The translations under genes were made by a program, and so were the position numbers. Below are positions 5,240-23,077 of a stretch of DNA of 24,000 bases, piece after piece (position 1 is the stretch's first letter; each line of letters begins with the position of its first letter). Source of the DNA: Bacillales bacterium UBA7476 (GTDB taxonomy: Bacteria > Bacillota_I > Bacilli_A > RF39 > UBA660); the NCBI GenBank assembly GCA_002477275.1, contig DLOU01000020.1, positions 21,781-45,780 on the forward strand. Direction: 5' to 3'. The notes beneath the pieces were generated by a model, which ran no database searches, was not told the DNA's origin, and saw nothing but the letters and a program-made list of their open reading frames with translations.

Positions 5240-5262
5240 GTCTTCTACTGCTCATATTTACC

Positions 5263-5291
5263 TTGACACTTTTTTAAATCAACACTAAAAT
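5263..5291 (+). promoter_or_regulatory. Sigma-A type promoter of rny
   Basis: TTGACA (5263-5268), a 17-nt spacer, then TAAAAT (5286-5291). Confidence 0.55.
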
Positions 5292-5353
5292 AGAATTAGA
5301 TTATGATTTAAATATTTTATATTTTAAATATATTCTAGAAAGTGGAGGAAAAG

Positions 5354-6910
5354 ATGAATAATAATGTAGTTTTCTTTTCTTTGCTTTTTCTTATTGGATT
5401 AGTTGTTGGTTTTATACTAAGTATAGTTGTTAACTATATTAGAAAGAATTTAACTTCTAAAGTTGTAAAAGATATGATTGATAAGGCACGTAAAGATGCT
5501 GAAAAAACAAAAAGAGAGATTATTCTTGAACAAAAAGAAGAATCTCATAGATTAAAACTTGAACTTGACAAAGAAATTAAAGAGAAAAAACAAGAAATTA
5601 AAGATAATGAAGATCGTCTTCTTCAGAGAGAGAAGAGTATTGATAAAAGAGATGAATTATATCAAAAAAGAGAACTTTTATTAGATGAAAAAGAAGAAAA
5701 ATTAAATGTTAAGTTAAGTGAAATTCAAGATGAGAAGAGTAAAGTAGAAGAAATAAAAAATGAACAATTAGAGAAATTAGAAAAAATTTCAAAATTAAGT
5801 AGAGATAAAGCTAAAGAAGTTTTAATGGAACAAGTTAAAGCTAATATGAGTAAAGAAGTTTCTGCTTATATTAAAGAACAAGAGCAAGAAGCAAAGATGG
5901 TTGCTGATAAACAAGCTAAAGAATATATTGTTACAGCAATGCAAAGATATGCCGCTGATATAGCTAATGAACAAACTATAACAGTAGTTGATTTACCTAA
6001 TGATGAAATGAAAGGTAGAATAATAGGACGTGAAGGTAGAAATATTCGTACTATTGAGGCTATTACTGGTGTTGATTTAATAATTGATGATACTCCAGAA
6101 GCAGTAGTACTTTCAAGTTTTGATCCTTTACGTAGAGAGATTGCACGTATTACACTAGAAACTTTAATTAAGGATGGTAGAATTCATCCTACTAGAATTG
6201 AAGAAATCTATGATAAGACTTGCAAAGATATGAATAAGAAGATAATTGAATTAGGAAATGAAGCTCTATTTACTTTAGGTCTTACTAAGATGGATAGTAA
6301 TTTAATTGAACTTGTTGGTAAATTACATTTTAGAACAAGTTTTGGACAGAATGTTTTATCTCATTCAATTGAAGTAGCAGAACTTTCTGGACTTCTTGCT
6401 AGTGAGTTTAATGAAGACGTAAATCTTGCTAAGAGAGCTGGACTTTTACATGATATTGGTAAAGCTATTGATCATGATGTAGAGGGAAGTCATGTTGAAC
6501 TTGGAGCTGATCTTGCTCGTAAGTATCATGAAAATGATGTTGTTATAAACACAATTGAATCTCATCATGGGGATAAACCTGCTACTAGTGTTATAGCAAG
6601 TATAGTAGCTATTAGTGATGCTTTAAGTGCATCTCGTCCTGGTGCTAGAAATGATTCTATTGAAAACTATGTACAAAGACTTTCACAACTTGAAAGTGTA
6701 GGAAATGATGTAGAAGGTGTTGAAAAAACATTTGCAGTTCAAGCAGGAAGAGAACTTCGCGTTATTGTTAAACCAGAAGAAATAGATGATTTACAAGCAC
6801 ATGTTGTTGCTCGTGAAATAAAAGAAAAAATTGAAAGTACTATGAAATATCCTGGTACAATCAAGATTACTGTTGTTAGAGAAACAAGAGCATTAGAAGA
6901 AGCAAAATAA
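5354..6910 (+). CDS. rny: Ribonuclease Y
   Basis: It has an N-terminal TM (VVFFSLLFLIGLVVGFILSIVV), a long K/E coiled coil, a KH domain (GRIIGREGRNIRTIEAITGVDLIID) and an HD domain (LLHDIGKA...SHHG). The ATG at 5354 follows GGAGG (5344-5348). The GTG at 5342 in the track is unlikely. Confidence 0.95.
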   Translation: MNNNVVFFSLLFLIGLVVGFILSIVVNYIRKNLTSKVVKDMIDKARKDAEKTKREIILEQKEESHRLKLELDKEIKEKKQEIKDNEDRLLQREKSIDKRDELYQKRELLLDEKEEKLNVKLSEIQDEKSKVEEIKNEQLEKLEKISKLSRDKAKEVLMEQVKANMSKEVSAYIKEQEQEAKMVADKQAKEYIVTAMQRYAADIANEQTITVVDLPNDEMKGRIIGREGRNIRTIEAITGVDLIIDDTPEAVVLSSFDPLRREIARITLETLIKDGRIHPTRIEEIYDKTCKDMNKKIIELGNEALFTLGLTKMDSNLIELVGKLHFRTSFGQNVLSHSIEVAELSGLLASEFNEDVNLAKRAGLLHDIGKAIDHDVEGSHVELGADLARKYHENDVVINTIESHHGDKPATSVIASIVAISDALSASRPGARNDSIENYVQRLSQLESVGNDVEGVEKTFAVQAGRELRVIVKPEEIDDLQAHVVAREIKEKIESTMKYPGTIKITVVRETRALEEAK

Positions 6911-6952
6911 AAAGAAGCTTATTGGTTAACTTCAATCTTAGCTTCTTTTTTT
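6911..6952. terminator. Putative bidirectional terminator shared by convergent rny and rnj
   Basis: AAAGAAGCT (6911-6919) pairs with AGCTTCTTT (6940-6948) around a 20-nt loop. A T-run follows on the + strand and an A-run precedes it, which reads as a T-run on the - strand. The hairpin overlaps the last codons of rnj. Confidence 0.45.
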
Positions 6953-8616
6953 ATGTCTAAAATAATTGGTAAAATAATAGGTTTTCGACCTGTTAATTCA
7001 TTTATAAATGGAATTAAATCTGCCATCAATTCATTTTTTATACTAGCAAATGTAGAAGTTTGTTCTTTTAGTTGTTCTTTTACGACTTTTTCAGCTTCTG
7101 TTTCAATTTTTTTGATAAGTTCTTCATTTTCATTTACTTGTATAAATCCTCTTGTTGTAATGTTTGGTTTAATTAATAATTCATGTTTTTTCATATCGAC
7201 ATTTACAATAACAACTAAAATTCCATCTCCAGCCATTATTTTTCTATCACGAATAACTGCACCACCAATTTCACCAATTCTATTTCCGTCTACATATATA
7301 TCTGCTCCTGGTTTACTTTCTCCTCTTGTTAACTCATGGTCAACTAAATCTAAAGTATCACCATTTTTTAATATAAATGTATTTTCTTTTGGAATACCGC
7401 ATTCAATTCCTAAATTTGCATGTCTTTTTAACATTCTATAATCACCATGGAATGGCATTAGATACTTAGGTTGTAGTAATCTAATCATTAATTTTAATTC
7501 TTCTTGATTAGCATGTCCTGATGTATGTAATCCACTTAATGATTTATTTGTATATACTGACACACCGTTTAAGCATAGTTTATTAATTATTTTTGAAATA
7601 CTTAATGCATTTCCTGGAATAGCACTTGAAGAGAATATAACTATGTCATCTGGTCTTAATTTTACATATTTATGACTACCATTAGACATACGTGATAAAG
7701 CAGCAAGTGGTTCTCCTTGAGTTCCTGTACAAAGTATTGCAACTTCACTTGGTTTATAATTGTTTAACTCTTCTGGTTGAATAAGAATTTCTTTGTGATT
7801 TATATAACCACCTTCAATTGATATTCTTATGTTGTTTTCCATACTTCTACCAAATAGACATACTTTTCTACCGTGTTTAAAGCAAGTATCAAAAATATGT
7901 TTAACTCTATATACGTTTGATGCAAAAGTAGCAATAATAATTCTTTGTTGTGGATATTTTTCAAACATACTATTTAAGGCATTATCAACTTTAGATTCAC
8001 TTGTTGAAAAACCTTCACTAAGAGCATTAGTTGATTCACTTATTAACACATCTACACCTTCATGCCCTAAAGTAGCAATTTTGTATAAATCTGCCATAGG
8101 TCCAATAGGAGTTAAGTCAAATTTAAAGTCTCCAGTAGTTACTATTCTTCCATCTGGAGTAGTAAGTGATATTCCATGTGAATCTGGAACAGAGTGTGTT
8201 ACTAAGAAGAATTCTACTTCAATTTCTCCAAATTTTAATTTTGTATCACCATCGTAAGCATAAAGATTGTCATAACGAATGTTACGATCAGCTAGTTTTA
8301 CAGCAATTAATTCTTTAGCATGTCTTGGAGCATATATAGCAGGTATTTCTAAACTTTGTATTAAGAATGGAATACTACCAATATGATCTTCATGACCATG
8401 AGTAATTAATAAAGCTTTAATTTTATCTTGGTTTTCTTTTAAAAAAGTAAAGTCTGGAAGAACATAATCAACTCCCATTAGTTCACTTTCAGGAAAACTA
8501 ACACCGGCATCAATAATAACAATAGAGTCGTTATGCATTACACAATACATATTTTTTCCGACTTCTCCTAAACCACCTAAAACAATTATTTTTGTTCCGT
8601 TTGGTTTTTTATTCAT
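6919..8616 (-). CDS. rnj: Ribonuclease J (metallo-beta-lactamase / beta-CASP)
   Basis: The N-terminus is IIVLGGLGEVGKNMY and the motif is LITHGHEDHIG. The beta-CASP and C-terminal domains cover the full length (565 aa). A strong SD (AAAGGAGAAA on the - strand) lies upstream of the ATG. Confidence 0.95.
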   Translation of the reverse strand: MNKKPNGTKIIVLGGLGEVGKNMYCVMHNDSIVIIDAGVSFPESELMGVDYVLPDFTFLKENQDKIKALLITHGHEDHIGSIPFLIQSLEIPAIYAPRHAKELIAVKLADRNIRYDNLYAYDGDTKLKFGEIEVEFFLVTHSVPDSHGISLTTPDGRIVTTGDFKFDLTPIGPMADLYKIATLGHEGVDVLISESTNALSEGFSTSESKVDNALNSMFEKYPQQRIIIATFASNVYRVKHIFDTCFKHGRKVCLFGRSMENNIRISIEGGYINHKEILIQPEELNNYKPSEVAILCTGTQGEPLAALSRMSNGSHKYVKLRPDDIVIFSSSAIPGNALSISKIINKLCLNGVSVYTNKSLSGLHTSGHANQEELKLMIRLLQPKYLMPFHGDYRMLKRHANLGIECGIPKENTFILKNGDTLDLVDHELTRGESKPGADIYVDGNRIGEIGGAVIRDRKIMAGDGILVVIVNVDMKKHELLIKPNITTRGFIQVNENEELIKKIETEAEKVVKEQLKEQTSTFASIKNELMADLIPFINELTGRKPIILPIILDIKKEAKIEVNQ

Positions 8617-9004: not shown

Positions 9005-10729
9005 ATGAAAGAATTAAAGGTAGATAAAAATCATAAAAGAGTTGATGCAAGTAAAATTGGTAGTCCTTTAAAAAGAATATCTTCAGGTCTTTTAGGAACG
9101 GTAATGGCTTTATCGATGTATTCAGGTACAGTTCCAAAAGTTGCTGCTGATGAAATACAGAGTGATAGAAGTATTGTTTCTTATGATGAGGACGAAACAA
9201 GAGAACTTAGTTTAGGAACTGGTACACATCTTCTTGCACCATCAACTAAAGAACCTTATACACCTCAATCTGTAAGCGATTATAAAGATTCAATAAATGT
9301 TTCTTTTTATAGTTCTGGGTATGATTTAACTGATTTAAAATATTTTAAGAATGCTAGTAAGATATATTTTAATTATAATGATGTATTTGAACAATATGAT
9401 TTTATAGATTCTCTTCCTGTAATGCCAAGTATAGAAAGTGTTAATTTTATGTCTACCTTTGGAATGGAATTTACACAGGAAGATGCAGACAGGTTATTAG
9501 AAAAATTTCCAAATATGAAAAAACTAAATTTAGGTGATGCAACATATGATCCTTCAATAGTTGAAAATATGACATTTTTGGAAGAATTAACTATCAATGA
9601 TGCGTTTAATTGTGATATTGATTTTACTAAACTTACTTTTTTGAAAAAAATAGTATTCAATGTTAAACCTTATAATTTAGCTATATTTTTAAATTCTAAT
9701 GAATATGCCACTCTTATAAAAAATGGTGTTGAAATTGAATTTCCTGAAGGAACTAAAGAAACTTATTTAGAAACTTCAAAGAAACTTGATGATATTGTAG
9801 AATCCCTTGGGTTATCAGAAGATAGTACTGAAAAAGAAAAATTTGATGCTGTTCTAATTTATATTCTTGAAAACTATGAGTATGATCCTACTGTTCAAAA
9901 AAATACCGAGTTAGGCGTTAGGGATGATAAATTAACTTCTTCATTTTATAAAGATGGTAGGTTATATGCTATTTTTAATGAAGATACAGCAATATGTGGA
10001 AACTATACAGCTTTATTTGAAGCACTTTATGATAGATTGTTTCCACCAAAAAAATCATATTTTTTATATAATGAAGATCATGCATGGAACTTAGTTAATA
10101 TAGGAGGAACATGCTATTATGTTGATTCTACTTGGTTAGATGGAGAAAAAATAACAGAACAAATAGAGGAATCCTATGAGGAAGATGGAATGTTACACAC
10201 TAGTATTAGTTTTGAGACAATTTCTTCTGAAGAAGCAATTAAAAAGGGTAAGACTGATGATTTGATATGGTATATGAATGATGATGCTGATTATGATAGA
10301 GAATATCATGTTCCAATGATTATGCCTAGCTATATGTTTTCACAAGATGTTGAAGATGAATATGTTGGACATGTTGAAGATGTTTCAAGCAGTAAATCTT
10401 CATCTGAATTTGTAAGTGAACATGAGGAAGTAGTTGATTCTTCTCAGAAGAAAGTAAAACTAAATATAAATGGTAAGGTAATTGTTTGTAGTTTTGGAGC
10501 ACTTGTTGGAGTTATGTCTGCAATAGGACTAGCTGTTCATGTTAATAAGAAAAAACAACGTGAACTTAAGAGAAAAAGACAGTTGCAAGCTCAATTAGAT
10601 GATGCAGATTATGATTATTCTGGATATGATTATTCTGGCTATTCGTCTGATTATGGGCAAACAGAAACTACTTCTTATGGTATAGATTATGGTTATTATA
10701 ATGATTCATCTTCAGGTTATAAAAAATAA
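9005..10729 (+). CDS. Surface-anchored transglutaminase-like (papain-fold Cys-His-Asp) protein
   Basis: The SD GGGGGT precedes the ATG. There is an N-terminal signal-like segment (GLLGTVMALSMYSGTVPKVAADE). The transglutaminase core triad context is ICGNYTALFEALYDR (Cys codon 9995-9997), DHAWNLV (His 10079-10081) and YYVDSTW (Asp 10124-10126). A C-terminal TM (VIVCSFGALVGVMSAIGLAVHV) is followed by a basic stretch and a Tyr-rich tail. Confidence 0.75.
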   Translation: MKELKVDKNHKRVDASKIGSPLKRISSGLLGTVMALSMYSGTVPKVAADEIQSDRSIVSYDEDETRELSLGTGTHLLAPSTKEPYTPQSVSDYKDSINVSFYSSGYDLTDLKYFKNASKIYFNYNDVFEQYDFIDSLPVMPSIESVNFMSTFGMEFTQEDADRLLEKFPNMKKLNLGDATYDPSIVENMTFLEELTINDAFNCDIDFTKLTFLKKIVFNVKPYNLAIFLNSNEYATLIKNGVEIEFPEGTKETYLETSKKLDDIVESLGLSEDSTEKEKFDAVLIYILENYEYDPTVQKNTELGVRDDKLTSSFYKDGRLYAIFNEDTAICGNYTALFEALYDRLFPPKKSYFLYNEDHAWNLVNIGGTCYYVDSTWLDGEKITEQIEESYEEDGMLHTSISFETISSEEAIKKGKTDDLIWYMNDDADYDREYHVPMIMPSYMFSQDVEDEYVGHVEDVSSSKSSSEFVSEHEEVVDSSQKKVKLNINGKVIVCSFGALVGVMSAIGLAVHVNKKKQRELKRKRQLQAQLDDADYDYSGYDYSGYSSDYGQTETTSYGIDYGYYNDSSSGYKK

Positions 10730-10820: not shown

Positions 10821-12173
10821 ATGGGATTATTTAGTAAGATAAAAAAGATGTTTTCTTCTAACGAGGAAGAAATCGAAGAAGAAGAATTGAATGAAGAGGA
10901 AGAATTAGAAGAAATTGAAGAAGATTCTGAAGAAACCCAAGAAGTAGAAGATGAATTTGAAGAAAGCGATGAAGATTCTGAAGATGCCCAAGAAATAGAA
11001 GAAGATTCTGAAGAAATCAAAGAAGAAATAATTAATGATGATGAATTAGAAGAATTTGAAGATGAGATTAAAGAAGAGGATTCTGAAGTTCTAGAGGTTG
11101 AAGAAGAATTAGATAATTCTGAAACTGAATTAGAAGATAGTAAAAAAGAAGAACATTCTTTATCAAAAAAAGAATTAAAAAAGAAGAAAAAAGAAGAAAA
11201 AATATTAAAAAAACAACAAAAGAAGGAAGAAAAAAGAAAGAAACAGTTAGAAGAAGTTCAAATATATGAAAAGGGATTAACAAAATCTAGAGAGGGATTT
11301 GTTAGTAAACTTGCTTCTCTTACAAATAAGTATAAAAAAATTACTGATGATTATTTTGATGAACTTGAGGAAACGTTAATCATGGCAGATATTGGTGTTA
11401 ATACTGTTATGAATTTTATGGATAGATTAAGAGATAGAGTTAAACATGAAAAAATAGAAAATACTGAAGATTTAAAAGAAATAATAATAGATGAACTTTT
11501 TATAATTTATGTTAATGATGATGTCTTAGTAAATAAAATTAATTTTAACGATAATGGACCTACAGTTGTTTTGTTTGTTGGTGTTAATGGAGTAGGAAAA
11601 ACTACTACAATTGCTAAAATAGCTTCTAAGATGAAGAAAGAAGGAAAAAAAGTACTTCTTGTTGGTGGAGATACATTTAGAGCTGGTGCAGTACTACAGC
11701 TTGAGGATTGGGGTAAAAAAATTAATGTTGATTTCTATGGAAAAGAACAAGGTGCTGATCCAGCAAGTGTTGTTTTTGATGGATTAGTTAAAGCAAAAGA
11801 AGAAGATTATGATTTAGTATTAATTGATACAGCTGGTAGACTTCAAAATAAAGTTAATCTTATGAAAGAACTTGAAAAAATAAATAGAGTAATTGGTCAG
11901 CAAATTGAAGGAGGACCACATGAAACACTTCTTGTTGTAGATGCAACAACAGGACAAAATGGTATTAGTCAAGCTAAGAGTTTTAAGGAGATTACTAATA
12001 TTACAGGTATTGTACTTACAAAACTTGATGGAACTGCTAAAGGTGGAATTGTACTTGCTATTAAAGATGAAGTTAATATTCCTGTTAAATACATAGGTCT
12101 TGGAGAAAGAGAAGATGACCTTCAAGTATTTGATATAGAAAAGTACATATATGGATTATTTAAAGATTTATAG
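10821..12173 (+). CDS. ftsY: Signal recognition particle receptor FtsY
   Basis: The N-terminus MGLFSKIKKMFSS is amphipathic and is followed by an acidic low-complexity region of about 100 aa. The NG domain shows GVNGVGKTTTIAK, DTAGRL, TKLDGTAKGG and GLGEREDDL. The SD is AAGGAG. Confidence 0.95.
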   Translation: MGLFSKIKKMFSSNEEEIEEEELNEEEELEEIEEDSEETQEVEDEFEESDEDSEDAQEIEEDSEEIKEEIINDDELEEFEDEIKEEDSEVLEVEEELDNSETELEDSKKEEHSLSKKELKKKKKEEKILKKQQKKEEKRKKQLEEVQIYEKGLTKSREGFVSKLASLTNKYKKITDDYFDELEETLIMADIGVNTVMNFMDRLRDRVKHEKIENTEDLKEIIIDELFIIYVNDDVLVNKINFNDNGPTVVLFVGVNGVGKTTTIAKIASKMKKEGKKVLLVGGDTFRAGAVLQLEDWGKKINVDFYGKEQGADPASVVFDGLVKAKEEDYDLVLIDTAGRLQNKVNLMKELEKINRVIGQQIEGGPHETLLVVDATTGQNGISQAKSFKEITNITGIVLTKLDGTAKGGIVLAIKDEVNIPVKYIGLGEREDDLQVFDIEKYIYGLFKDL

Positions 12174-12182
12174 GAGTTTATT

Positions 12183-12725
12183 ATGAGTAAAAAGAAAAAA
12201 GAAGAAGAAAAACTTGAAGAAGAATTAAAAGAATCAGAAAAGAAACCTGAGAAGAAAAAAGAAGTTAAAAATACAAAAGAAAAAGATAATGTTTCTTCTA
12301 ATGAAGAAAATAAAGATAAAAAAGACAATAAAAAAAGAACTAAAACAGATGATTATTATGATGAATTAACTAAGGAAAATAAAATTGTAGATATAATTAA
12401 AGAAAAAGATGGGGAAGAGAAAGAAGAAATTGAAACAGAAGAAGAAAAAGAAAAAGTTTTAAAAGCTCAAAAGAAAATAACAAAATCTGATATGTTTTTT
12501 CTAAATATCCAATTATTTTTTTCGATTGGTACTTTTGTTTTAGCTATTATATATTTCTTTAATAAGAATTTGATGTTTGTATTACAGATAGTACTTGGTT
12601 TAACAATGATTGTTACTGGAGTTAATAATATAAAAGTATATAAAAGAAAATCGTTAACTGTATTTTATTTTGCTTTAGGTATAGCGCTTCTTGTTCTTTC
12701 TGTTATTACTATGTTAGGAAAATAA
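12183..12725 (+). CDS. Lys/Glu-rich membrane protein (about 100 aa charged N-terminus plus 3 predicted TM)
   Basis: The ATG lies 6 nt after an AGGAG that overlaps the ftsY TAG stop (TAGGAG). The TM segments are FFLNIQLFFSIGTFVLAIIYFF, MFVLQIVLGLTMIVTGV and VFYFALGIALLVLSVITMLG. No family recognised. Confidence 0.7.
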   Translation: MSKKKKEEEKLEEELKESEKKPEKKKEVKNTKEKDNVSSNEENKDKKDNKKRTKTDDYYDELTKENKIVDIIKEKDGEEKEEIETEEEKEKVLKAQKKITKSDMFFLNIQLFFSIGTFVLAIIYFFNKNLMFVLQIVLGLTMIVTGVNNIKVYKRKSLTVFYFALGIALLVLSVITMLGK

Positions 12726-12726
12726 T

Positions 12727-13017
12727 ATGGAAGAAATTGTTTATTATTCTGAATTATATGATTTATATAAAAAATTATTAACTGATAAACAGCAAGAATA
12801 TTTTGAGGAATACTATTTTAATAATTTATCGCTTAGTGAAATATCAAATGATTTTGATATAAGTCGTAATGCTGTTTCAAAACAACTTGCTGTTATTAGA
12901 GAAAAACTTGATGAATATGAATTAAAACTAGGTTTATATAAGAAGTTAGAACAAATAAAAAAATCTGTTGATGATGAGAGATTAAAAGATAAGATTATTG
13001 ATATATTGTTATCATAA
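12727..13017 (+). CDS. ylxM: YlxM/UPF0122 putative HTH protein (SRP-operon associated)
   Basis: LYDLYKKLLTDKQQEYFEEYYFNNLSLSEISNDFDISRNAVSKQL matches the B. subtilis YlxM pattern (LFDFYQSLLT.KQ..Y..LYY..D.SLGEIAEE..VSRQAV). It starts 1 nt after the upstream stop. Confidence 0.85.
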   Translation: MEEIVYYSELYDLYKKLLTDKQQEYFEEYYFNNLSLSEISNDFDISRNAVSKQLAVIREKLDEYELKLGLYKKLEQIKKSVDDERLKDKIIDILLS

Positions 13018-13058: not shown

Positions 13059-13087
13059 TTGCAAGTTTACTATATCAATAGTATAAT
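13059..13087 (+). promoter_or_regulatory. Strong sigma-A type promoter of the HerA-like gene
   Basis: TTGCAA (13059-13064), a 17-nt spacer, then a perfect TATAAT (13082-13087). Confidence 0.6.
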
Positions 13088-13123
13088 TGATATGATAGGG
13101 AAAGAGTAGAAAGAGGGACAATT

Positions 13124-15604
13124 ATGTTTGATAAGATAGTCTATATTAGTGATAAGGGTGCTAATGTAAAATTAAAAGCAGATGCTGATTTAACATTTAA
13201 CTTAATGAATTTACATGTAATTTTTGAAGATGCGGAAAAAACAGTTTTAGGAGAAGTAGATGATCTTGATGGAGATTTAGTTAAGATCAGGTTTTTGGGT
13301 GAAATAAAAAATAATAGGTTATATGGTGGTACTTTAAGAAAACCTACTCTTGATGCAAGTTGTCGTGTTATTAATGAAGAAGAAATTCCTCTTGTTACTG
13401 GTAAAGATGAATCAGGTTTTATGCTTCTTGGAAATAGCCCTTTCTATAATGATAGAGAAGTTTTCATGAATGTAAATGGATTCTTTAGTAATCACTTTGC
13501 TATTATGGGAAACAGTGGTTCTGGTAAAAGTTGTGGTGTTAGTAGAGTATTCCAAAATATGTTTGAAGACCAAAGATTGTTCCCTTATAAATCAAATATA
13601 ATTATGTTTGATTCTTCTGCTGAGTACTATAATGCTTTTAAAGATTTGTCTAGTATTAATTCTAATTATAACTATAGATTTATTTCCACAAATGAAATAG
13701 ATCCGTTTGCTGAAAAACTAAGATTACCTATTTACCTTTTAAATGAACAGGATTTAGCATTATTACTTAATGTTACAAGTCATTCCCAATTGCCAATTAT
13801 TGAGAGAATGTTAAAACTTGCTAGAATTTTTTCTCAGACAGAAGTAGATGCAAATGCTTATAAGAATCACTTAATAGCTAAAGCTATAATGACTATTCTA
13901 TATACTAATGAAACTTCTCCAAATAAGAGAAATGAAATATTTTCAATTATAGCTTCTTGTTCAACACCAGAGTTTACTTTAGAGTCAGTAATTCAAGGTG
14001 CTGGTTATACAAGAAAATTTAGAGAGTGTTTCTTAATAGATCAGTTTGGTAACTTTACTGAAAGTGTACTTATGACTGAGTATTTAAATAAATTTATTAA
14101 TCCAGATTTTGATAATTATGAGCCTGAAGGAAGTGTTTTCTTTGATTTAGATACATTAGAAAAGGCATTAAACTTTACTTTAATTAGTGAAGGTTGGTTA
14201 AGAAATCAAAATACTTATGGAGATTCTGTTACAATTAGAGTTAGACTTCATTCATTAATTGTTGGTCCTAATGCTAAATATTTTGAATATCCTGATTTTG
14301 TTACTCTTGAACAATTTATTTCTTCATTGTTAATTACTAATGGTAGAAAATACCAATTTGTTAATATTAATTTAGATGATGTTGATGATGTTTTTGCAAA
14401 AGTTATTGTTAAAATTTATTCAAGATTAATATTTAGTTTTGCTAAAGGATTATCTAATAGAGCTAGTATTCCTTTCCATCTAATTGTAGAAGAAGCTCAT
14501 AGATATATTCAGAACGATACCGATACATTCTTAATTGGATATAATATATTTGACCGTATTGCAAAAGAAGGACGTAAGTATGGTGTAATTCTTGGTTTAA
14601 TTACTCAAAGACCAGTGGAAATGAGTGATACTGTTATTTCTCAGTGTTCTAATTTCTTAATATTTAAGATGAATCACCCTGCTGATGTTGAATATATTCG
14701 TAAGATGGTCCCAAATATTAGTGATGAAATTGTTGAAAAACAAAAAACACTTCAATCTGGTACTTGTTTAGCATTTGGTATGGCATTTACTATTCCATTA
14801 ATAGTTAGGTTAAAAATGCCTAATCCAGAGCCTAAGAGTGGAAACTGTGATGTTGTTAGAATTTGGGATGGTAATGCTGGTGGCGGAGGAAATAGTATTC
14901 AAACTCCACAACAACCTCAAGCACCTCAAAAGAATGAAGAACCTGTACAACCTCAGATTCCTCAAATTCCTCAAGGATTACAACCTATACAGAATCCTAA
15001 TGATTTTAATCCAAGTAATCCCTTTACTTTGGGACAACCAACTGATGCTCCTCAATTAATGGGAAATACTAATAATCAAGGGAAAGAAAGTAATGGATTA
15101 AATTTGATGGGAATGAATAATAACGGATTAAATTTAATGAGTCAACCGGAAAACAATGAAAATAATAATCCAAATAATGATGGTAATAATGGATTTAATT
15201 TGATGAGTCAACCAGAAAATAGTAATAATACTAGTAGTGATGGTGGCAATGGATTTAATCTAATGAGTCAGCCAGAAGATAATAGTTCTTCTAATGGTCT
15301 TATAAAGAGTGCTACTCCTGCTTCTGATGATAATGGTTCAAACCCATTGATGCAGCCATATAATAGTGTTCAAAATTATAATTCTAATGTTGATGATGGT
15401 GCATTAAATCCTAATAACTTAGAAGTTCCTAATCCTGGAAATATTCCATTAGGTTCTCAGAATTTTATTAATACGACGGATAGTTTATCTCCTAATATTG
15501 AATTACCTAAACAACAACCTCAAATTATAATTCCAGGTGGTCAAAATTTCTCACCTAGTTTAATGGAAGGTTTTGGAGATGCTGCTGTTTCTACAGGAGA
15601 ATAG
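13124..15604 (+). CDS. HerA/FtsK-superfamily (DUF87-like) ATPase with a long disordered P/Q/N-rich C-terminal tail
   Basis: Walker A is HFAIMGNSGSGKS (13508-13531) and Walker B is PFHLIVEEAHRY (about 14480-14506). IAKEGRKYGVILGLITQRPVEMSDTVISQCSNFLIFKMNHPADVEYI is typical of HerA. The N-terminus is barrel-like (VKLKAD...LGEVDDLDGDLVKIRFLGEI). The tail starts near nt 14870. Confidence 0.85.
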   Translation: MFDKIVYISDKGANVKLKADADLTFNLMNLHVIFEDAEKTVLGEVDDLDGDLVKIRFLGEIKNNRLYGGTLRKPTLDASCRVINEEEIPLVTGKDESGFMLLGNSPFYNDREVFMNVNGFFSNHFAIMGNSGSGKSCGVSRVFQNMFEDQRLFPYKSNIIMFDSSAEYYNAFKDLSSINSNYNYRFISTNEIDPFAEKLRLPIYLLNEQDLALLLNVTSHSQLPIIERMLKLARIFSQTEVDANAYKNHLIAKAIMTILYTNETSPNKRNEIFSIIASCSTPEFTLESVIQGAGYTRKFRECFLIDQFGNFTESVLMTEYLNKFINPDFDNYEPEGSVFFDLDTLEKALNFTLISEGWLRNQNTYGDSVTIRVRLHSLIVGPNAKYFEYPDFVTLEQFISSLLITNGRKYQFVNINLDDVDDVFAKVIVKIYSRLIFSFAKGLSNRASIPFHLIVEEAHRYIQNDTDTFLIGYNIFDRIAKEGRKYGVILGLITQRPVEMSDTVISQCSNFLIFKMNHPADVEYIRKMVPNISDEIVEKQKTLQSGTCLAFGMAFTIPLIVRLKMPNPEPKSGNCDVVRIWDGNAGGGGNSIQTPQQPQAPQKNEEPVQPQIPQIPQGLQPIQNPNDFNPSNPFTLGQPTDAPQLMGNTNNQGKESNGLNLMGMNNNGLNLMSQPENNENNNPNNDGNNGFNLMSQPENSNNTSSDGGNGFNLMSQPEDNSSSNGLIKSATPASDDNGSNPLMQPYNSVQNYNSNVDDGALNPNNLEVPNPGNIPLGSQNFINTTDSLSPNIELPKQQPQIIIPGGQNFSPSLMEGFGDAAVSTGE
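15092..15310 (+). repeat. In-frame tandem motif repeats inside the HerA-like tail
   Basis: The copies are NGLNLMG (15092), NGLNLMSQPEN (15122), NGFNLMSQPEN (15188), NGFNLMSQPED (15248) and a degenerate NGLIKS (15293). The nucleotide spacing between full copies is 66 and 60 nt. Confidence 0.8.
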
Positions 15605-15623
15605 TTTATCTATTCTCTTTTTT
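15597..15623 (+). terminator. Rho-independent terminator after the HerA-like gene
   Basis: GAGAATAG (15597-15604) pairs perfectly with CTATTCTC (15610-15617) around a 5-nt loop, followed by TTTTTT. Confidence 0.75.
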
Positions 15624-15627
15624 AGGG

Positions 15628-15657
15628 TTGTTTTTTAAGTACAAATTACTTTATAAT
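15628..15657 (+). promoter_or_regulatory. Candidate promoter of ffh
   Basis: TTGTTT (15628-15633), an 18-nt spacer, then a perfect TATAAT (15652-15657), just after the upstream terminator. Confidence 0.35.
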
Positions 15658-15673
15658 GGTATTGGTGATATAT

Positions 15674-17569: not shown

Positions 17570-17905
17570 ATGTTTAATGATCAGAATTTAAGTAATGTTA
17601 TGGATTTTGATTCTAATGTTAGTGGAAGTAATAATTTTTCATATAATGATGTAGATTTTAATGTTAATCAAAATATGATGAATGATGGTATGATGATGAA
17701 TAATAGTATGCCATCTACTTGTGAACAACCACGTGAAAGATGTATTCACAGAACCTTTGTACATGAAGTACCACATGTTTGTCCTATAAAAACAAGAATA
17801 ATTAATCATCATGTATATCGTCATACTTATAGACCAGAATATTCTTGTTGTGAAGAAAATGTAGTAAGTAATGTTCAATGTGGTTCTTGTTGTGATTTTA
17901 ATTAA
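17570..17905 (+). CDS. CotD-family (inner spore coat protein D-like) Cys/His-rich small protein
   Basis: The SD is AGGAGG. RCIHRTFVHEVPHVCPIKTRIINHHVYRHTYRPEYSCC...CCDFN parallels B. subtilis CotD (CCEHHTFSKTIVPHIHPQHTTNVNHQHFQHVHYFPHTFS...CCDY, recalled from memory). The N-terminal half is N/M-rich and low-complexity. Confidence 0.65.
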   Translation: MFNDQNLSNVMDFDSNVSGSNNFSYNDVDFNVNQNMMNDGMMMNNSMPSTCEQPRERCIHRTFVHEVPHVCPIKTRIINHHVYRHTYRPEYSCCEENVVSNVQCGSCCDFN

Positions 17906-17990: not shown

Positions 17991-18725
17991 ATGTATGATG
18001 ATTTAAGAGATATGAATGTTGGAATTATTTTTAGGAGGAATGCATCAGGAGATAGATATATTTTTTATTCTCCAGTTATTCTTTCTCCTTCAAAGAGTTT
18101 TCGTGGACAAAAATATTTTTCAGTTTCATATGGAGCTTTTCAGGATAGGAGTTTTTCTAGTGATCAAGTTCTTACTTTTGATAGTAAAAAAGTTCTTTCA
18201 ACGCTTCAGAGTAAGAAGGATACTCTTGGTTTAGATGGTAAAATTGGAGATAAAAAAGATTTAATAGTACTTCTTTTAAATGATGAACTTAGAGAGTATG
18301 TATATAATGAATTAAGAAAAGGTGGTAAAGAACCATCTCCGTCAGATTTTCTTGTTAGTTTATCTGGCTTTGCATATAATGTTGGTAATTCTATTGATTA
18401 TATTATGCCTGGAAAACTTAGATCATTTACATGCTTTACTAAAGAAACTTCTGAAGTAAAGAATTTTTCACATAAGGTTTCTGAGGATGAGTACCAATTT
18501 TTAAATAATAATGTTTTTTCAAATAAGAGACAAAAGAAGACTGAAGAAGCAAAGGCTGTTGCTAGTCAATCTTCAAATGTTAGGTATACAACTCCACCAT
18601 CAACTATTTCAAAAAAGAGTGCAACCCCGGCACGTAAAATTACAGTAGAAAAAAAGAAAAAAGAAAAGGAAGAAGAAAAAGGAAGAAGTAGTATTGGAAA
18701 AAGATTTAACAACAGAGAAAATTGA
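17991..18725 (+). CDS. Hypothetical protein with a K/E-rich C-terminus, possibly the N-terminal part of a frameshifted fusion with the next ORF
   Basis: The ATG follows AGGTGA. No motif recognised. The 3' end overlaps the next ORF in the +1 frame within an A-rich tract. Confidence 0.5.
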   Translation: MYDDLRDMNVGIIFRRNASGDRYIFYSPVILSPSKSFRGQKYFSVSYGAFQDRSFSSDQVLTFDSKKVLSTLQSKKDTLGLDGKIGDKKDLIVLLLNDELREYVYNELRKGGKEPSPSDFLVSLSGFAYNVGNSIDYIMPGKLRSFTCFTKETSEVKNFSHKVSEDEYQFLNNNVFSNKRQKKTEEAKAVASQSSNVRYTTPPSTISKKSATPARKITVEKKKKEKEEEKGRSSIGKRFNNREN

Positions 18726-19536
18726 TCCAAGAGAAATAAAAAAGGAACTTAAAAAGAAAATGAATTTACCTTTTATTGTGGCACCTGCTAATAGTTTTTC
18801 AACTGTTGGATATAAAGGAGCTGATATTACTGATGTATTAGTAAAACTACTTGATCAAGCACAGGGTGATTTAGAACTTGCTGAAAGAGGAGTAATTGCT
18901 TTTGATGAGTTTGATAAAATAGGTTATTCAGGAGATGATAAAGGTTTATCTATGAATCTTGGTATTCAACAAGAACTTCTTACTTTTATTGAGGGTGCAA
19001 CATATGATGTTGAATATAATGGAAAAACTTATGAATTTGATACATCTAAACTTACTATTGTTGCGATGGGAGCCTTTACTAATTTAAGGGAAAGAAAAAT
19101 AGCTGAGAATGAAAAGAAAAATAAACCTTCTTTAGGTTTTTCTGGCAATAGTGATGATGATTATGAAAGAGTGTATACTATTACAGAAGATGACTATATA
19201 GGTGAAGGATTAGGTAGAGAACTTGTTGGACGTTTTTCTTGTCTAGCATTCACTGAAGAGTTAGGTGTGGAAGATTTAGAAAGAATATTAAAAGAAAGTG
19301 AATCAAGTCCTTTAAAATCTTTAATTTTTGATGGTAAAATTAATGGCTGTGAAATAACTGTTAGTGATGAAGTTATTCATGAAATTGCTTTAAGGGCTTA
19401 TAAATCAAATGTTGGAGTTAGAGGATTAAATCGAATTTGTAAATCAATAAGAAATATTATTTCTAATGATTTAATTGATAAAGTTCCTGAAATTGTCATT
19501 ACAAGTGAACATTTAGATAAGATAAATAGTTTTTAA
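18694..19536 (+). CDS. ClpX-family AAA+ module lacking the Walker A P-loop and the zinc-binding domain
   Basis: It aligns by eye to E. coli ClpX from LDVPFTMADAT onward. Matches are NLPFIVAPANSFSTVGYKG (pore-loop GYVG becomes GYKG), Walker B GVIAFDEFDKI, GIQQELLTFIEG, DTSKLTIVAMGAF, ELVGRFSCLAFTEEL and GVRGLNRICKSI. There is no GPTGSGKT equivalent. The start is uncertain (TTG 18694 or ATG 18760). Confidence 0.6.
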   Translation: MEKDLTTEKIDPREIKKELKKKMNLPFIVAPANSFSTVGYKGADITDVLVKLLDQAQGDLELAERGVIAFDEFDKIGYSGDDKGLSMNLGIQQELLTFIEGATYDVEYNGKTYEFDTSKLTIVAMGAFTNLRERKIAENEKKNKPSLGFSGNSDDDYERVYTITEDDYIGEGLGRELVGRFSCLAFTEELGVEDLERILKESESSPLKSLIFDGKINGCEITVSDEVIHEIALRAYKSNVGVRGLNRICKSIRNIISNDLIDKVPEIVITSEHLDKINSF

Positions 19537-20026: not shown

Positions 20027-20710
20027 ATGAATATTCAAAATACTTTTAGAAGAGTTGAACAGAAATATGTTCTGGATAAAAAACAATATAAAATAATTAA
20101 AGATAGTATTTCTGAACATTTTGACAAAGATAAGTTTCCAACTAGTAAAATTTACAATATATATTTTGATAATGATAATAATGACTTAATTATTAACTCA
20201 TTAGAAAAACCTGTATATAAAGAAAAGTTTAGAGTAAGAAAATATGGTGATAGTGGTGAAATATTTTTAGAAATGAAACAGAAGTATAAAAGTGTTGTTT
20301 ATAAGAGAAGGGTTATTTTAACTCAAGATGAATATGATGCTTATTTAGATGATGGTATTTTTCCTTCTCATGATAAACAAATTATGAGTGAGATTGATTA
20401 TTATATGAAGTATTATAATTTAAAGCCATTTATGGTTGTTGCTTATGATAGAGAAAGTTTTTTATCAAAGGATGATTCAGATTTTAGATTAACTTTTGAT
20501 CATAATTTAAGAAGTAGAGATAATAAATTAATTTTAGAAGATGATGAAAGCGATAAAATGTATTTTTCAGATGAAAAATGGATAATGGAATTAAAAAGTA
20601 CAAATAATTTACCATTATGGTTTATTGATATTTTATCAAAAAATAAAATATATCCTGTATCATTTTCGAAGATAGGTAATATATATAAAAAGGAAAGAGG
20701 TAATGTTTAA
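20027..20710 (+). CDS. VTC-domain (triphosphate-tunnel, polyphosphate-polymerase-like) protein
   Basis: FRRVEQKYVL at the N-terminus, IYNIYFDNDNNDL, EKFRVRKYG, FLEMKQKYKSVVYKRR and WIMELKS are alternating charged beta-strand motifs typical of CYTH/VTC tunnel proteins. The SD is AAAGGAGA. Confidence 0.8.
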   Translation: MNIQNTFRRVEQKYVLDKKQYKIIKDSISEHFDKDKFPTSKIYNIYFDNDNNDLIINSLEKPVYKEKFRVRKYGDSGEIFLEMKQKYKSVVYKRRVILTQDEYDAYLDDGIFPSHDKQIMSEIDYYMKYYNLKPFMVVAYDRESFLSKDDSDFRLTFDHNLRSRDNKLILEDDESDKMYFSDEKWIMELKSTNNLPLWFIDILSKNKIYPVSFSKIGNIYKKERGNV

Positions 20711-21375
20711 TGTTAAATAGTGTTTTATCAAGTAGTGGTTTAACATTGGGAAGTTTATTAATTTGTTCACTTGCATCAATTATTTTTGGATTAATAATAG
20801 CTTTAGTTCATATGAAAACTTCAAAATATACAAAGAATTTTTTAATAACTTTAATTATTTTACCAATACTTGTTCAAACTGTAATTTTTATGGTTAATGG
20901 TAATTTAGGAACTTCAATAGCAATAGTAGGAGCATTTAGTTTAGTTAGATTTAGATCTGTAGCTGGAACAAGTCGTGAAATTGTTAGTATTTTCTTTGCA
21001 ATGGCTATTGGTCTTGCTACTGGAATGGGTCAAATTGTTTTTGCAGCAATTATTACTGTTCTTGTCAGCTTAATTTTAGTAATATTAAGTATTTCAAAAT
21101 TTGGAGAAGGAAGTAATTCTACAAAGAAATTAAAAATAACTATTCCTGACAATGTAGATTATACCGAAGTGTTTGATGATATATTTGATAAATATCTTGA
21201 AAAATCAACTTTAGATAGTGTTAAAACTGTAAATTTAGGAAGTTTATTTGAACTTACTTATACTGTTAATCTAAAGAATAATGTTAATGAGAAAAAATTT
21301 GTTGATGATTTAAGATGTAGAAATGGAAATTTAAAAATAATTTTAACTCATCCAATAAATGATGGAGAATTATAA
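20710..21375 (+). CDS. DUF4956-like membrane protein
   Basis: It has 4 predicted TM segments and SLVRFRSVAGTSREIVSIFFAMAIGLATGMG, followed by a soluble C-terminal domain. Its start overlaps the VTC gene stop (TAATG). Confidence 0.75.
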   Translation: MLNSVLSSSGLTLGSLLICSLASIIFGLIIALVHMKTSKYTKNFLITLIILPILVQTVIFMVNGNLGTSIAIVGAFSLVRFRSVAGTSREIVSIFFAMAIGLATGMGQIVFAAIITVLVSLILVILSISKFGEGSNSTKKLKITIPDNVDYTEVFDDIFDKYLEKSTLDSVKTVNLGSLFELTYTVNLKNNVNEKKFVDDLRCRNGNLKIILTHPINDGEL

Positions 21376-21376
21376 T

Positions 21377-23077
21377 ATGAAGAAAAAACGAATAATAATT
21401 ATTTTATCAATTATTATAGTAGTTGCTTTATCTACTTGTTTGATATTCTATTTTAAAAATAAGAATAGTAAAAGTAGTAAAAATGATGTCTCAAGTATTG
21501 ATACTAATATTAAAGTAGATAATGGTGATGAAAAAATTGATTGGGATAGTATGAAAACTACTAAGGTTACTTTAAGTAAAAGTTTAAAAATTACAGAGGA
21601 AGGTGTATATATATTAACCGGTACTATAAGTAATGGTAGTATAACTGTTAATACAGATGGCAATGTAAAACTAGTTTTAAATGGTGTAAATATAACAAAT
21701 AATAGTGGTTCCGCAATATTAGTTGAGAATGCTAAAAATGTTGTTATTGAAACTAATGAAGGAACAACTAATAATTTAGAAGATGGATCTAATTATTCTG
21801 ATATTGAATATGATGGATGTATTTATTCTAAAGATGATTTAGTTTTACAAGGTAGTGGAACATTAAATGTTACAAGTAATTATTCTGATGCTATTGTATC
21901 AACTGATGATTTAAAAATTGTTAGTGGTACTTATAATATTAAGAGTCAAGATGATGGTATAAGAGGAAAAGATTCTGTATATATACTTGGTGGAACTATT
22001 AACATTGATAGTAATGCTGATGGTATTAAGTCTACAAATGATTCTGATTCTACAAAAGGATTTATTTATATAAAAAATGGTACTATTGTTATAAATAGTG
22101 TAGAAGATGCAATTCAGGCTCAAACTAAATTAATAATTGATGATGGTAATTTTGATATAACTACAAATGGTGGTAGTGGTCAAAGTGGATCGGCAGTTGA
22201 TAAATCCTTTGGAAGACAAACAACTTATGATGAAACAAGTGCTAAGGGTTTAAAAGCAGAAAGTAATTTAGTTATTAAAGGTGGTAACTTTAAGATAAAT
22301 AGTAAAGATGATGCTGTTCATTCTAATAATGATGTTGGTATTTCAAATGCTACAATGGAAATATCATCTGGTGATGATGGTATTCATGCTGATAGTAGTG
22401 TAATTATTGAAAGCGGAACAATAAATATTACTAAATCATATGAGGGAATAGAAGGTAAAAATATAACTGTTAATTCTGGTAATATTAGTTTAGTTTCAAG
22501 TGATGATGGATTTAATGTTAGTGGAGGTAATGATTCTTCAAGTATGAATGGAAGACCTGGACAAAATGGTGGTATGGATGCTGATTCTGGTGGAGTTTTA
22601 ACAATAAACGGTGGAACAATTTATGTTAGTGCCGATGGGGATGGACTTGATTCAAATGGTTCAATTACTATGACTGGAGGAATTGTTTATGTAGATGGAC
22701 CAACAAATAATGGTAATGGTGCTCTTGATTATAATGCAACATTCAATATTTCAGGAGGTAGTCTTATTGCAGTAGGAAGTAGTGGAATGGCACAAAGTAC
22801 TTCAACTTCTTCAAGTCAAATATCCATTCAATACTATTTAAGTGGTAATTATAGTGATAAGTTATCTATTGAAGATTCAAGTGGTAATGTTATTTTTGAA
22901 TATTCTCCTAAAAAATCATATCAAAATGTAGTTTATTCTTCAGGAGATTTAAAAGAAGGAGAAACGTATACTTTAAAAATAAATGGAAATAGTGTTGGAA
23001 CAGTTACAGCTAGTTCAATCGTTAATTCCAATGGAAGTGGAAATAATTATGGAATGCAAAGAGGAGGTAGAAGATAA
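21377..23077 (+). CDS. Secreted or anchored beta-helix repeat protein (carbohydrate-binding Cthe_2159-like)
   Basis: The ATG at 21377 follows GGAG (21364-21367), 1 nt after the upstream stop. There is an N-terminal signal/anchor (KKKRIIIILSIIIVVALSTC). Repeated units include DDGIRGKDSVYILGGTINI, DDAVHSNNDVGISNATMEI, DDGIHADSSVIIESGTINI and DGDGLDSNGSITMTGGIVYV. Confidence 0.7.
   Translation: MKKKRIIIILSIIIVVALSTCLIFYFKNKNSKSSKNDVSSIDTNIKVDNGDEKIDWDSMKTTKVTLSKSLKITEEGVYILTGTISNGSITVNTDGNVKLVLNGVNITNNSGSAILVENAKNVVIETNEGTTNNLEDGSNYSDIEYDGCIYSKDDLVLQGSGTLNVTSNYSDAIVSTDDLKIVSGTYNIKSQDDGIRGKDSVYILGGTINIDSNADGIKSTNDSDSTKGFIYIKNGTIVINSVEDAIQAQTKLIIDDGNFDITTNGGSGQSGSAVDKSFGRQTTYDETSAKGLKAESNLVIKGGNFKINSKDDAVHSNNDVGISNATMEISSGDDGIHADSSVIIESGTINITKSYEGIEGKNITVNSGNISLVSSDDGFNVSGGNDSSSMNGRPGQNGGMDADSGGVLTINGGTIYVSADGDGLDSNGSITMTGGIVYVDGPTNNGNGALDYNATFNISGGSLIAVGSSGMAQSTSTSSSQISIQYYLSGNYSDKLSIEDSSGNVIFEYSPKKSYQNVVYSSGDLKEGETYTLKINGNSVGTVTASSIVNSNGSGNNYGMQRGGRR

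Follow-up and report, generated by a model that had tools for sequence, protein, structure and literature searches.

HerA-family ATPases have so far been treated as one half of two-gene modules, in which NurA, SIR2, or DUF4297 is the partner that supplies the output. In the SIR2-HerA systems that we have read about, the partner also switches the ATPase on. The ATPase activity of defense HerAs is stimulated by DNA ends, and these enzymes unwind or nick DNA (PMC13434337, PMC11472057). Here, we discuss a HerA-family gene (hereafter herA) that lies between ylxM and ffh in the signal recognition particle (SRP) operon of Bacillales bacterium UBA7476, within a 24,000-nucleotide (nt) stretch of contig DLOU01000020.1 ("the window"; Table 1). 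A first-pass annotation of this DNA had described an ATPase of 826 amino acids (aa), an orphan cassette inserted into the operon that fits no described HerA system. The last statement holds within the reach of the profile libraries and full-text literature searches used: we came across no account of a solitary HerA clade residing in the core genome of these Bacilli and none that joins HerA and ylxM. The data discussed below suggest that herA belongs to an effector-less subfamily, fixed in the core genome and inherited vertically, whose members would act as housekeeping motors.

By profile, fold, and motifs, the protein is a HerA-family ATPase. Its only Pfam match is DUF87, "Helicase HerA, central domain" (PF01935; 5e-15, 56.5 bits vs. 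a cutoff of 23.2). The PADLOC HerA models match strongly, the best at 1.5e-102 and aligning aa 98-582 only. The NCBIfam equivalogs score far below their cutoffs, both those for antiphage HerA (NF042944, 159 vs. 850; NF042943, 148 vs. 800) and those for archaeal HerA (NF040937, 101 vs. 800; NF040819, 84 vs. 970). The protein is not a conjugative ATPase of the VirB4/TraC type. The CD1110 family profile (NF045971) gives 24 bits vs. a cutoff of 325 with no significant domain, the top matches by sequence and fold are all HerA, and Pfam scans of the window reveal no type IV secretion system (T4SS) genes. The nearest solved sequences are the HerA of HerA-DUF4297 (PDB 9c1m, identified via bioRxiv 10.1101/2024.10.24.620088; 2.9e-45), other DUF4297- and SIR2-associated HerAs, and Sulfolobus HerA.

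An AlphaFold2 (AF2) monomer model of aa 1-590 (predicted local distance difference test [pLDDT] 86.6; predicted template modeling score 0.84) shows a β-barrel, a RecA-like core, and a helical insertion in the core. All of the top 50 Foldseek matches in the PDB are HerA chains, with template modeling (TM) scores of 0.56-0.72 and alignments that span ~600-680 columns. Barrel, RecA-like core, and helical bundle make up the domain plan of SIR2-associated HerA (PMC11472057), and the model matches this plan minus the structured C-terminal arm domain. The barrel-like N-terminus noted earlier is likewise recovered, in the form of seven predicted strands. In the predicted structure, this part therefore qualifies as a HAS-type barrel, with a pLDDT of 83-89 apart from one 10-residue block at 66. 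It gave no Pfam HAS-barrel match at E <= 0.01, the best PADLOC profile misses it by starting at aa 98, and few parts of the core are less conserved (column conservation 0.49-0.50).

The Walker A, Walker B, and GRKYGV..ITQRP..SQC motifs quoted in the first-pass annotation are all present. Residue conservation was counted over 164 distinct relatives. The residues of Walker A and Walker B, R484/K485, and Q495 are kept in 162-164 of these sequences, and the Walker A lysine K135 in every one. The GRKYGV...ITQRP...SQC block is the stretch that aligns best to the HerA of 9c1m. Judged from the 164 relatives, the residues for nucleotide binding and hydrolysis are intact and under purifying selection.

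How does this locus compare with the described systems? The SIR2-HerA systems (Nezha; PDB 8wld, 8sub, and 8j4u; plasmid pairs of Listeria and Enterococcus) have the same order of barrel, RecA-like core, and helical bundle and the same C-terminal core motifs, and they share 28-31% identity with the window protein over ~89% of the core. In these systems, however, the SIR2 gene overlaps herA by 8 nt, whereas no SIR2 gene is present at the window herA. Moreover, their barrel comprises ~132-150 aa vs. ~97 aa here, where it does not align to the defense profile, and a structured C-terminal arm domain is found where the window protein has a disordered tail. They also reside on plasmids or islands, in contrast to the core-genome and apparently vertically inherited gene discussed here. 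The HerA of HerA-DUF4297 (PDB 9c1m, 8xau, and 8ziq) is the best PDB match by sequence and also by fold (E 5e-30), with a nearly identical GRKYG...QRP...SQC...PNPEP block, but the DUF4297 (Cap4-like) nuclease gene is absent from the ~170 loci described below. The archaeal and Deinococcus-type HerA-NurA end-resection helicase (PDB 4d2i and 9x1m) has the same fold and ring-ATPase motifs. Its housekeeping role in DNA repair is taken here as the functional model for the window gene, although we found no NurA, Mre11, or Rad50 neighbor of herA and the similarity in sequence is weaker, with the HerA equivalogs at 84-101 bits vs. cutoffs of 800-970. As the search for an adjacent effector was negative and all equivalog scores stay below their cutoffs, herA falls outside the SIR2-HerA, DUF4297-HerA, and HerA-NurA systems.

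Close relatives of the protein that stem from gut metagenomes number in the thousands in the protein database, with single variants on up to 316 contigs, and a second profile search of this database returned only further relatives at 72-88% identity and no added diversity. A scan with one genome per species yielded 80 loci, all from metagenome-assembled genomes (MAGs) labeled as uncultured Bacilli, "Tenericutes," or "Erysipelotrichaceae," among them Candidatus Onthousia, Coprobacillus sp. CAG:605, and Firmicutes bacterium CAG:460. Conserved synteny extends over these 80 genomes, 80 metagenome loci, and several distant representatives, and ~170 loci were compared in all. The 80 species-level loci split into two synteny groups. 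Group 1 (~50 loci; 51-82% identity to the window protein) has the order rnj (minus strand), ftsY, a small membrane gene in some cases, ylxM, and herA, usually followed by ffh; a 943-aa relative with 44% identity has the same order. In five group-1 loci, herA is followed by a set of three or four genes, one of which is fmt; in the three loci with a flank long enough to tell, this set lies between herA and ffh. No feature of the locus is better conserved than the ylxM-herA linkage: ylxM is directly upstream of herA in ~55 loci, i.e., species-level gut MAGs including the 44% relative. In group 2 (~30 loci; 49-55% identity), herA is located between gatCAB and a ThiF-like gene, followed by gpsA, rarA (MgsA), and a XerC/D-type recombinase gene.

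Altogether, ~120 relatives are single genes in non-SRP core contexts such as gatCAB/xerD/rarA, rnj, dnaE, sepF-divIVA, and dnaA. The distant members, which are the representatives and the 80 metagenome loci, are also single. Their neighbors are prsA/dnaE, trpS-walRK, rnj, rny, sepF-divIVA, relA, and rpsD, and one such herA lies between rpmH-rnpA-yidC-jag and dnaA-dnaN. The encoded neighbors are housekeeping proteins, among them DnaE, RarA, a XerC/D-type recombinase, ThiF, TrpRS, PrsA, RNase J/Y, and SepF/DivIVA. Hence, the SRP operon is only one of several core-genome homes of the clade.

For the neighbor check, the genes flanking herA in the ~170 loci were grouped into clusters, and cluster representatives or singletons were run against Pfam. 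No SIR2, DUF4297, or NurA neighbor was found in any of these loci. Ten unclustered same-strand open reading frames (ORFs) close beside herA were also scanned; these encode proteins such as a serpin, DacA, a major facilitator superfamily transporter, and DUF5684, in one case a UvrD-like helicase, and none of the ten is SIR2, DUF4297, or NurA. The first partnered relatives encountered are the SIR2-HerA pairs, with 28-30% identity on Listeria and Enterococcus plasmids and 31% in an integrase/ArdC island. In these pairs, which serve as positive controls, SIR2 is directly upstream of herA and shows the overlap mentioned above. Two tandem herA copies (616 and 584 aa, 15 nt apart) follow ylxM directly in one MAG (L040, ~4100-7760), which is the sole duplication seen in the ~170 loci. 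A TraG/VirD4-type coupling protein (T4SS-DNA_transf, TrwB_AAD_bind) is encoded ~4 genes downstream of herA in five loci of one subclade (L129, L131, L134, L143, and L163), where it comes after the trpS-walRK genes; this gene probably marks the border of an integrated conjugative element that has nothing to do with herA.

The data also bear on the age of the arrangement. Across 49 group-1 loci, pairwise identities of the HerA core and of FtsY are correlated (Mantel r 0.56; none of 2000 permutations reaches this value), which is consistent with vertical co-inheritance. The mean pairwise identity is 63% for the HerA core vs. 73% for FtsY, indicating that HerA evolves somewhat faster. A neighbor-joining tree was built from 48 solitary proteins whose gene context is known, 55 further full-length representatives, and three proteins linked to SIR2. 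In this tree, the solitary proteins form one clade that excludes all else, a bipartition recovered in 169 of 169 bootstrap replicates, and their sister group consists of two plasmid-borne SIR2-linked proteins (Enterococcus and Listeria) and two uncharacterized representatives. Monophyly of the solitary proteins, with SIR2-linked proteins in the sister group, makes the subfamily a distinct effector-less offshoot of a branch that contains defense HerAs. This relation might reflect domestication of a defense motor or recruitment into defense; either direction fits the tree.

The description of herA as an inserted cassette can therefore be kept only in part: the gene does lie between ylxM and ffh, but the ~55 loci and the co-divergence with FtsY show that its position is lineage-wide and not strain-specific. 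A recent or mobile insertion was rejected given the GC content, which is like that of the flanks, the absence of mobile genes nearby, and the lineage-wide synteny. A phage origin was rejected as well, because among 50,697 phage records there are two weak partial matches and the best match in IMG/VR has 36% identity, i.e., no close relative is present in either collection. The patchy, mobile-island distribution of anti-phage HerA systems is replaced here by conserved synteny. Collectively, these comparisons indicate an ancient, vertically inherited position between ylxM and ffh and, more broadly, a core gene that is passed on vertically within a large group of gut Bacilli that are uncultured and low in GC.

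In the window, herA has what the earlier annotation took for a transcription unit of its own, with a promoter, a Shine-Dalgarno (SD) sequence, and a terminator with an 8-bp stem. All three are present, and promoter and terminator keep their positions across close relatives. The AT-rich window contains 37 promoter-like sites vs. 46 expected, i.e., no enrichment. Statistics within this 27%-GC DNA are thus uninformative, which calls for a comparative test. The spacers compared are those of the closer group-1 relatives (~70% identity or more to the window protein) and the 44% relative L092, mostly tail-bearing with few exceptions. In these relatives, the ylxM-herA spacer is 47-188 nt long. A promoter matching the consensus at 10/12 positions or better (>=10/12) with a 17-nt spacer is found in 14 of 14 non-redundant ylxM-herA spacers, 19-49 nt ahead of the ATG, compared with 1.2 expected from shuffles. 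Among 24 of these spacers, 23 have such a promoter with a perfect TATAAT and a 17-nt spacer, and in 22 it sits 19-49 nt before the start codon. Purine-rich sites like the herA SD are present in relatives' spacers, and several spacers carry a hairpin and T-run directly after ylxM.

At the 3′ side, the segment with the hairpin over the herA stop codon folds with -12.7 kcal/mol (z = -3.0); a simple terminator scan did not list this hairpin among its sites. Most close relatives likewise have a hairpin with a T-run after the herA stop codon. Where ffh comes next, a TATAAT, often preceded by TG, follows the herA terminator, at the same position in L006, L019, and L020-L024. In the window (15628-15673), this TATAAT lies ~16 nt before the ffh start codon and is followed by a GGTGA SD. 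It thus appears that ffh has its own promoter with a very short leader. The compact sister group (~584-aa proteins) is organized differently: the gap between ylxM and herA is 4-23 nt, and a gap of 5-26 nt separates herA from ffh in the four loci in which these two are direct neighbors. This spacing marks the compact herA as an ordinary operon member. Hence, the self-contained unit stands for the sub-lineage of the window but not for the compact group; it is real, yet derived and specific to close relatives of the window gene. The pair of a compact, operon-embedded herA and a tail-bearing, self-promoted one illustrates how an operon gene can acquire a regulation of its own.

The self-promoted genes mostly encode a C-terminal tail. 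In the window protein, this tail (aa 583-826) consists of 19% N, 12% P, 11% G, and 10% Q, and pLDDT falls under 50 from aa 581. It contains seven xLM motifs, four of which read G(L/F)NLM; these motifs are partly encoded by a 60-nt tandem repeat. The relative P0002 has a core 99% identical to that of the window protein and is 30 aa shorter overall, and the relatives' tails vary in sequence and length (median ~200 aa, up to 423 aa). Short conserved blocks are nevertheless embedded in these variable tails, i.e., PNLM(E/D) repeats, YNSVQNYNANVDDG, SFINT..LTPNI, and a C-terminal IIIPGGQNVxxxLMEGFG. Other subclades end in G(T/S)PL(V/I)S(I/L)TP(D/E), SPIPEININ, or an acidic LxDLTLDDDD...DF(A/D/S) tip. 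Acidic ends with a near-terminal Phe (LDLTLDDDDxD...DFA/DFS) are seen in P0121, P0034, L020, L022, and L024, and they are reminiscent of the acidic C-terminal tip of single-stranded DNA-binding protein (SSB). One may speculate that the tail tips are clamp-binding or SSB-tip-like peptides. FtsK, too, carries a low-complexity, P/Q-rich linker attached to its ring motor. The overall architecture looks like a flexible linker carrying putative docking peptides.

What, then, does the protein do? Its closest relatives function in anti-phage defense together with a toxic partner. The solitary, anciently fixed, and vertically inherited state of the gene makes it look like a housekeeping version of a defense motor, and by analogy with the characterized HerAs we infer a DNA-dependent housekeeping motor as the most likely function. 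In this model, the herA product would assemble as a hexamer, as the solved HerAs do, and bind DNA in its central channel, and ATP hydrolysis at the subunit interfaces would drive its movement on DNA or remodeling of the DNA. Having lost a docked effector, or never having had one, it might carry out a constitutive genome-maintenance task together with proteins encoded elsewhere in the genome, with DNA-end processing, recombination, and replication-linked work as candidates. In the sub-lineage of the window, the disordered tail with its NLM-type repeats and conserved C-terminal peptide may tether partners or localize the motor. Taken as a whole, this proposal of a catalytically intact HerA ring ATPase, from an effector-less core-genome subfamily, that works as a housekeeping DNA-dependent motor with partners in trans and recruits them here by its tail is, on balance, probable. 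The identity of the protein and its status as a core gene are held with much higher confidence.

Several observations weigh against this proposal. In the SIR2-HerA work, HerA alone has little or no ATPase or helicase activity (PMC13434337, PMC11472057), so that a motor that really works alone would have to be activated in some other way. DNA as the substrate is assumed by homology. The neighborhoods of herA vary and are simply "core genome," and they give no specific pointer to a function. An effector may, moreover, be encoded at an unlinked position elsewhere in the genome. Finally, many clade members are tail-less (583-586-aa forms), which indicates that the tail is accessory and not essential to the basic function.

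The possibility of an unlinked effector leads directly to defense. In this scenario, herA would be an anti-phage gene with an effector that is located elsewhere, lost, or unneeded, i.e., a degenerate or split system of the SIR2-HerA type. The closest characterized relatives by sequence and fold are all defense HerAs, the sister group contains SIR2-linked proteins, and one published HerA type has intrinsic nickase activity alone (PMC13434337). Defense genes are typically patchy and found in variable islands, however, whereas herA stands at fixed core positions in the ~170 loci and co-diverges with FtsY. Neither is the poor conservation of the barrel, on which SIR2 docks (PMC11472057), nor the distance of the antiphage-HerA equivalog scores from their cutoffs as expected of such a system, and we regard it as unlikely. 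A tie to the SRP pathway or to YlxM, for example, as an ATPase that aids membrane-protein targeting or secretion, we rate slightly lower. Other members of the FtsK/HerA superfamily (VirB4, VirD4, and EssC) do power transport. The ylxM-herA adjacency kept in ~55 loci fits such a tie, as do the 4-23-nt gaps of the compact group, which imply co-translation with ylxM. But ~120 clade members are far from SRP genes, beside gatCAB, dnaE, trpS, sepF, or dnaA, and in the sub-lineage of the window a terminator followed by the apparent ffh promoter insulates herA from ffh. In addition, the protein has no membrane segment, and no secretion-system genes were found near herA.

The neighboring ribonuclease genes suggest another role, that of a motor in RNA decay that translocates RNA rather than DNA, feeding RNase J or RNase Y. 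In 11 loci, rnj is the immediate neighbor of herA; in the window, as in most group-1 loci, rnj or rny lies no more than two to four genes away, and three local arrangements of one recA-rny-rnj-ftsY-ylxM-ffh block were seen. This proximity may be mere inherited block synteny; many clade members have no RNase neighbor, and all characterized HerAs act on DNA (PMC13434337, PMC11472057), leaving an RNA motor improbable. Least probable by far is that herA stands in for an absent FtsK/SpoIIIE and pumps chromosomes during segregation in these reduced genomes. The protein shares the ASCE (additional strand, catalytic E) superfamily fold with these pumps, and sepF-divIVA, xerC/D-rarA, and dnaA are occasional division or replication neighbors. 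Yet the FtsK motor match, membrane anchor, and gamma domain are without a counterpart in the herA product, which has no Pfam FtsK_SpoIIIE match. Furthermore, a canonical, full-length FtsK with alpha, motor, and gamma domains is encoded ~2.6 kb from herA on a group-1 chromosome (L035:10354-12567) and near herA in L161 (242-2467), and an ORF in L098 (30-1724) falls in the same cluster and has the same motor motif. As FtsK is encoded only a few kb from the solitary herA in L035 and L161, the two ring ATPases coexist, and replacement is rejected for the genomes in which FtsK was seen. Neither FtsK nor SpoIIIE is mentioned in the RF39/RFN20 genome paper.

Table 1. Features of herA and its surroundings in the window (positions are those of the 24,000-nt stretch).
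Feature	Position	Strand	Details
ftsY	10821-12173		Upstream of ylxM and herA
180-aa membrane protein	12183-12725		Between ftsY and ylxM
ylxM	12727-13017	+	Upstream neighbor; Pfam UPF0122 4e-21; NCBIfam YlxM 84 bits vs. cutoff 80
herA promoter, sigma-70-type	13059-13087	+	TTGCAA (13059-13064), 17-nt spacer, TATAAT (13082-13087)
herA SD AGAGGG	13112-13117	+	6 nt 5′ of ATG; read from the sequence
HerA-family ATPase gene (herA)	13124-15604	+	826 aa; between ylxM and ffh
N-terminal β-barrel (HAS-barrel-like), aa 1-~97	13124-13414	+	AF2: seven strands in aa 2-82
Walker A GNSGSGKS, aa 129-136	13508-13531	+	Invariant G129, G132, G134, K135; S136 in 161/164
α-Helical bundle inserted in RecA-like core, aa ~221-404	13784-14335	+	AF2 secondary structure
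Walker B block LIVEEAHRY, aa 453-461 (IVEEAHRY 454-461)	14480-14506	+	Among 164: E456 162, E457 163, H459 164, R460 162
GRKYGV (483-488)...ITQRP (493-497)...SQC (506-508) block	14570-14647	+	R484, K485 164/164; Q495 near-invariant
Low-complexity C-terminal tail, aa 583-826	14870-15601	+	Rich in N, P, G, Q, S; ends in IIIPGGQNFSPSLMEGFG
60-nt tandem repeat, 2.7 copies	15118-15284	+	Tandem Repeats Finder (TRF) score 175; encodes NGFNLMSQPEN units
Intrinsic-terminator-like hairpin over herA stop codon	15597-15623	+	8-bp stem GAGAATAG (15597-15604) / CTATTCTC (15610-15617), then T6 to 15623
Apparent ffh promoter TTGTTT-18-TATAAT	15628-15657	+	Directly after herA terminator
ffh	15656/15674-16981	+	Downstream neighbor; TIGR00959, 626 bits

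The surroundings of herA within the window agree with the earlier statement that no nuclease, effector, or mobile-element gene is present on either side. Pfam scans of 20 ORFs, 9 of which have no Pfam match, gave no effector or mobile-element gene in the whole window, and no integrase or transposase flanks herA. The GC content is ~22-34% all along, with no compositional break at herA. The window genes recA, a Mur ligase gene, rny, and rnj were assigned by synteny to loci with Pfam marks. The true start of ffh is likely the MFENLG codon at 15674 and not that at 15656, as relatives start at MFESLGE. The membrane protein between ftsY and ylxM has a K/E-rich N-terminus and three hydrophobic segments and is kept at the same position in ~26 loci; its gene is a second lineage-specific addition to the SRP operon. 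Directly downstream of ffh, a 111-aa Cys/His-rich protein without a Pfam match (17570-17905) is kept in ~17 related loci.

Other ORFs of the window are listed here as observations in their own right. A 574-aa ORF (9005-10729) without a Pfam match, found in the window alone among the loci compared, has a Y/S/D-rich tail and hydrophobic stretches at the N-terminus and near the C-terminus that, judged by eye, may be a signal peptide and a membrane anchor. The region 17991-19536 contains a 280-aa ORF with AAA_2 and ClpB_D2-small domains, which aligns like the C-terminal two-thirds of ClpX without the Walker A region. The end of a 244-aa ORF without a Pfam match overlaps with this ORF, and a ClpX-like gene that is degenerate or has undergone a frameshift could explain the region. 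At 20027-23077, three co-directional genes encode a protein with a VTC domain, one with DUF4956, and one with a Cthe_2159 carbohydrate-binding domain.

The preferred reading, an effector-less housekeeping motor, invites a broader and more tentative proposal. A motor of the SIR2-/DUF4297-HerA branch might have become, or ancestrally been, an indispensable effector-free housekeeping enzyme in reduced-genome gut Bacilli, docking genome-maintenance partners in some sub-lineages by a C-terminal peptide tethered on a disordered tail that can expand by repeats. We consider this possible but doubtful. If true, it would be a clear case of immune/housekeeping exchange for HerA and would provide a natural "effector-free" HerA for dissecting how the ring is activated. 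The existence of the clade, which is fixed in the core genomes of many gut Bacilli that are abundant though uncultured, shows that the HerA motor can be selected on its own. Its divergent barrel and missing arm domain offer a comparative handle on the effector-specific surfaces of defense HerAs. Moreover, the clade points to an uncharacterized housekeeping activity in genomes of ~1-1.4 Mb, where retained genes are usually important.

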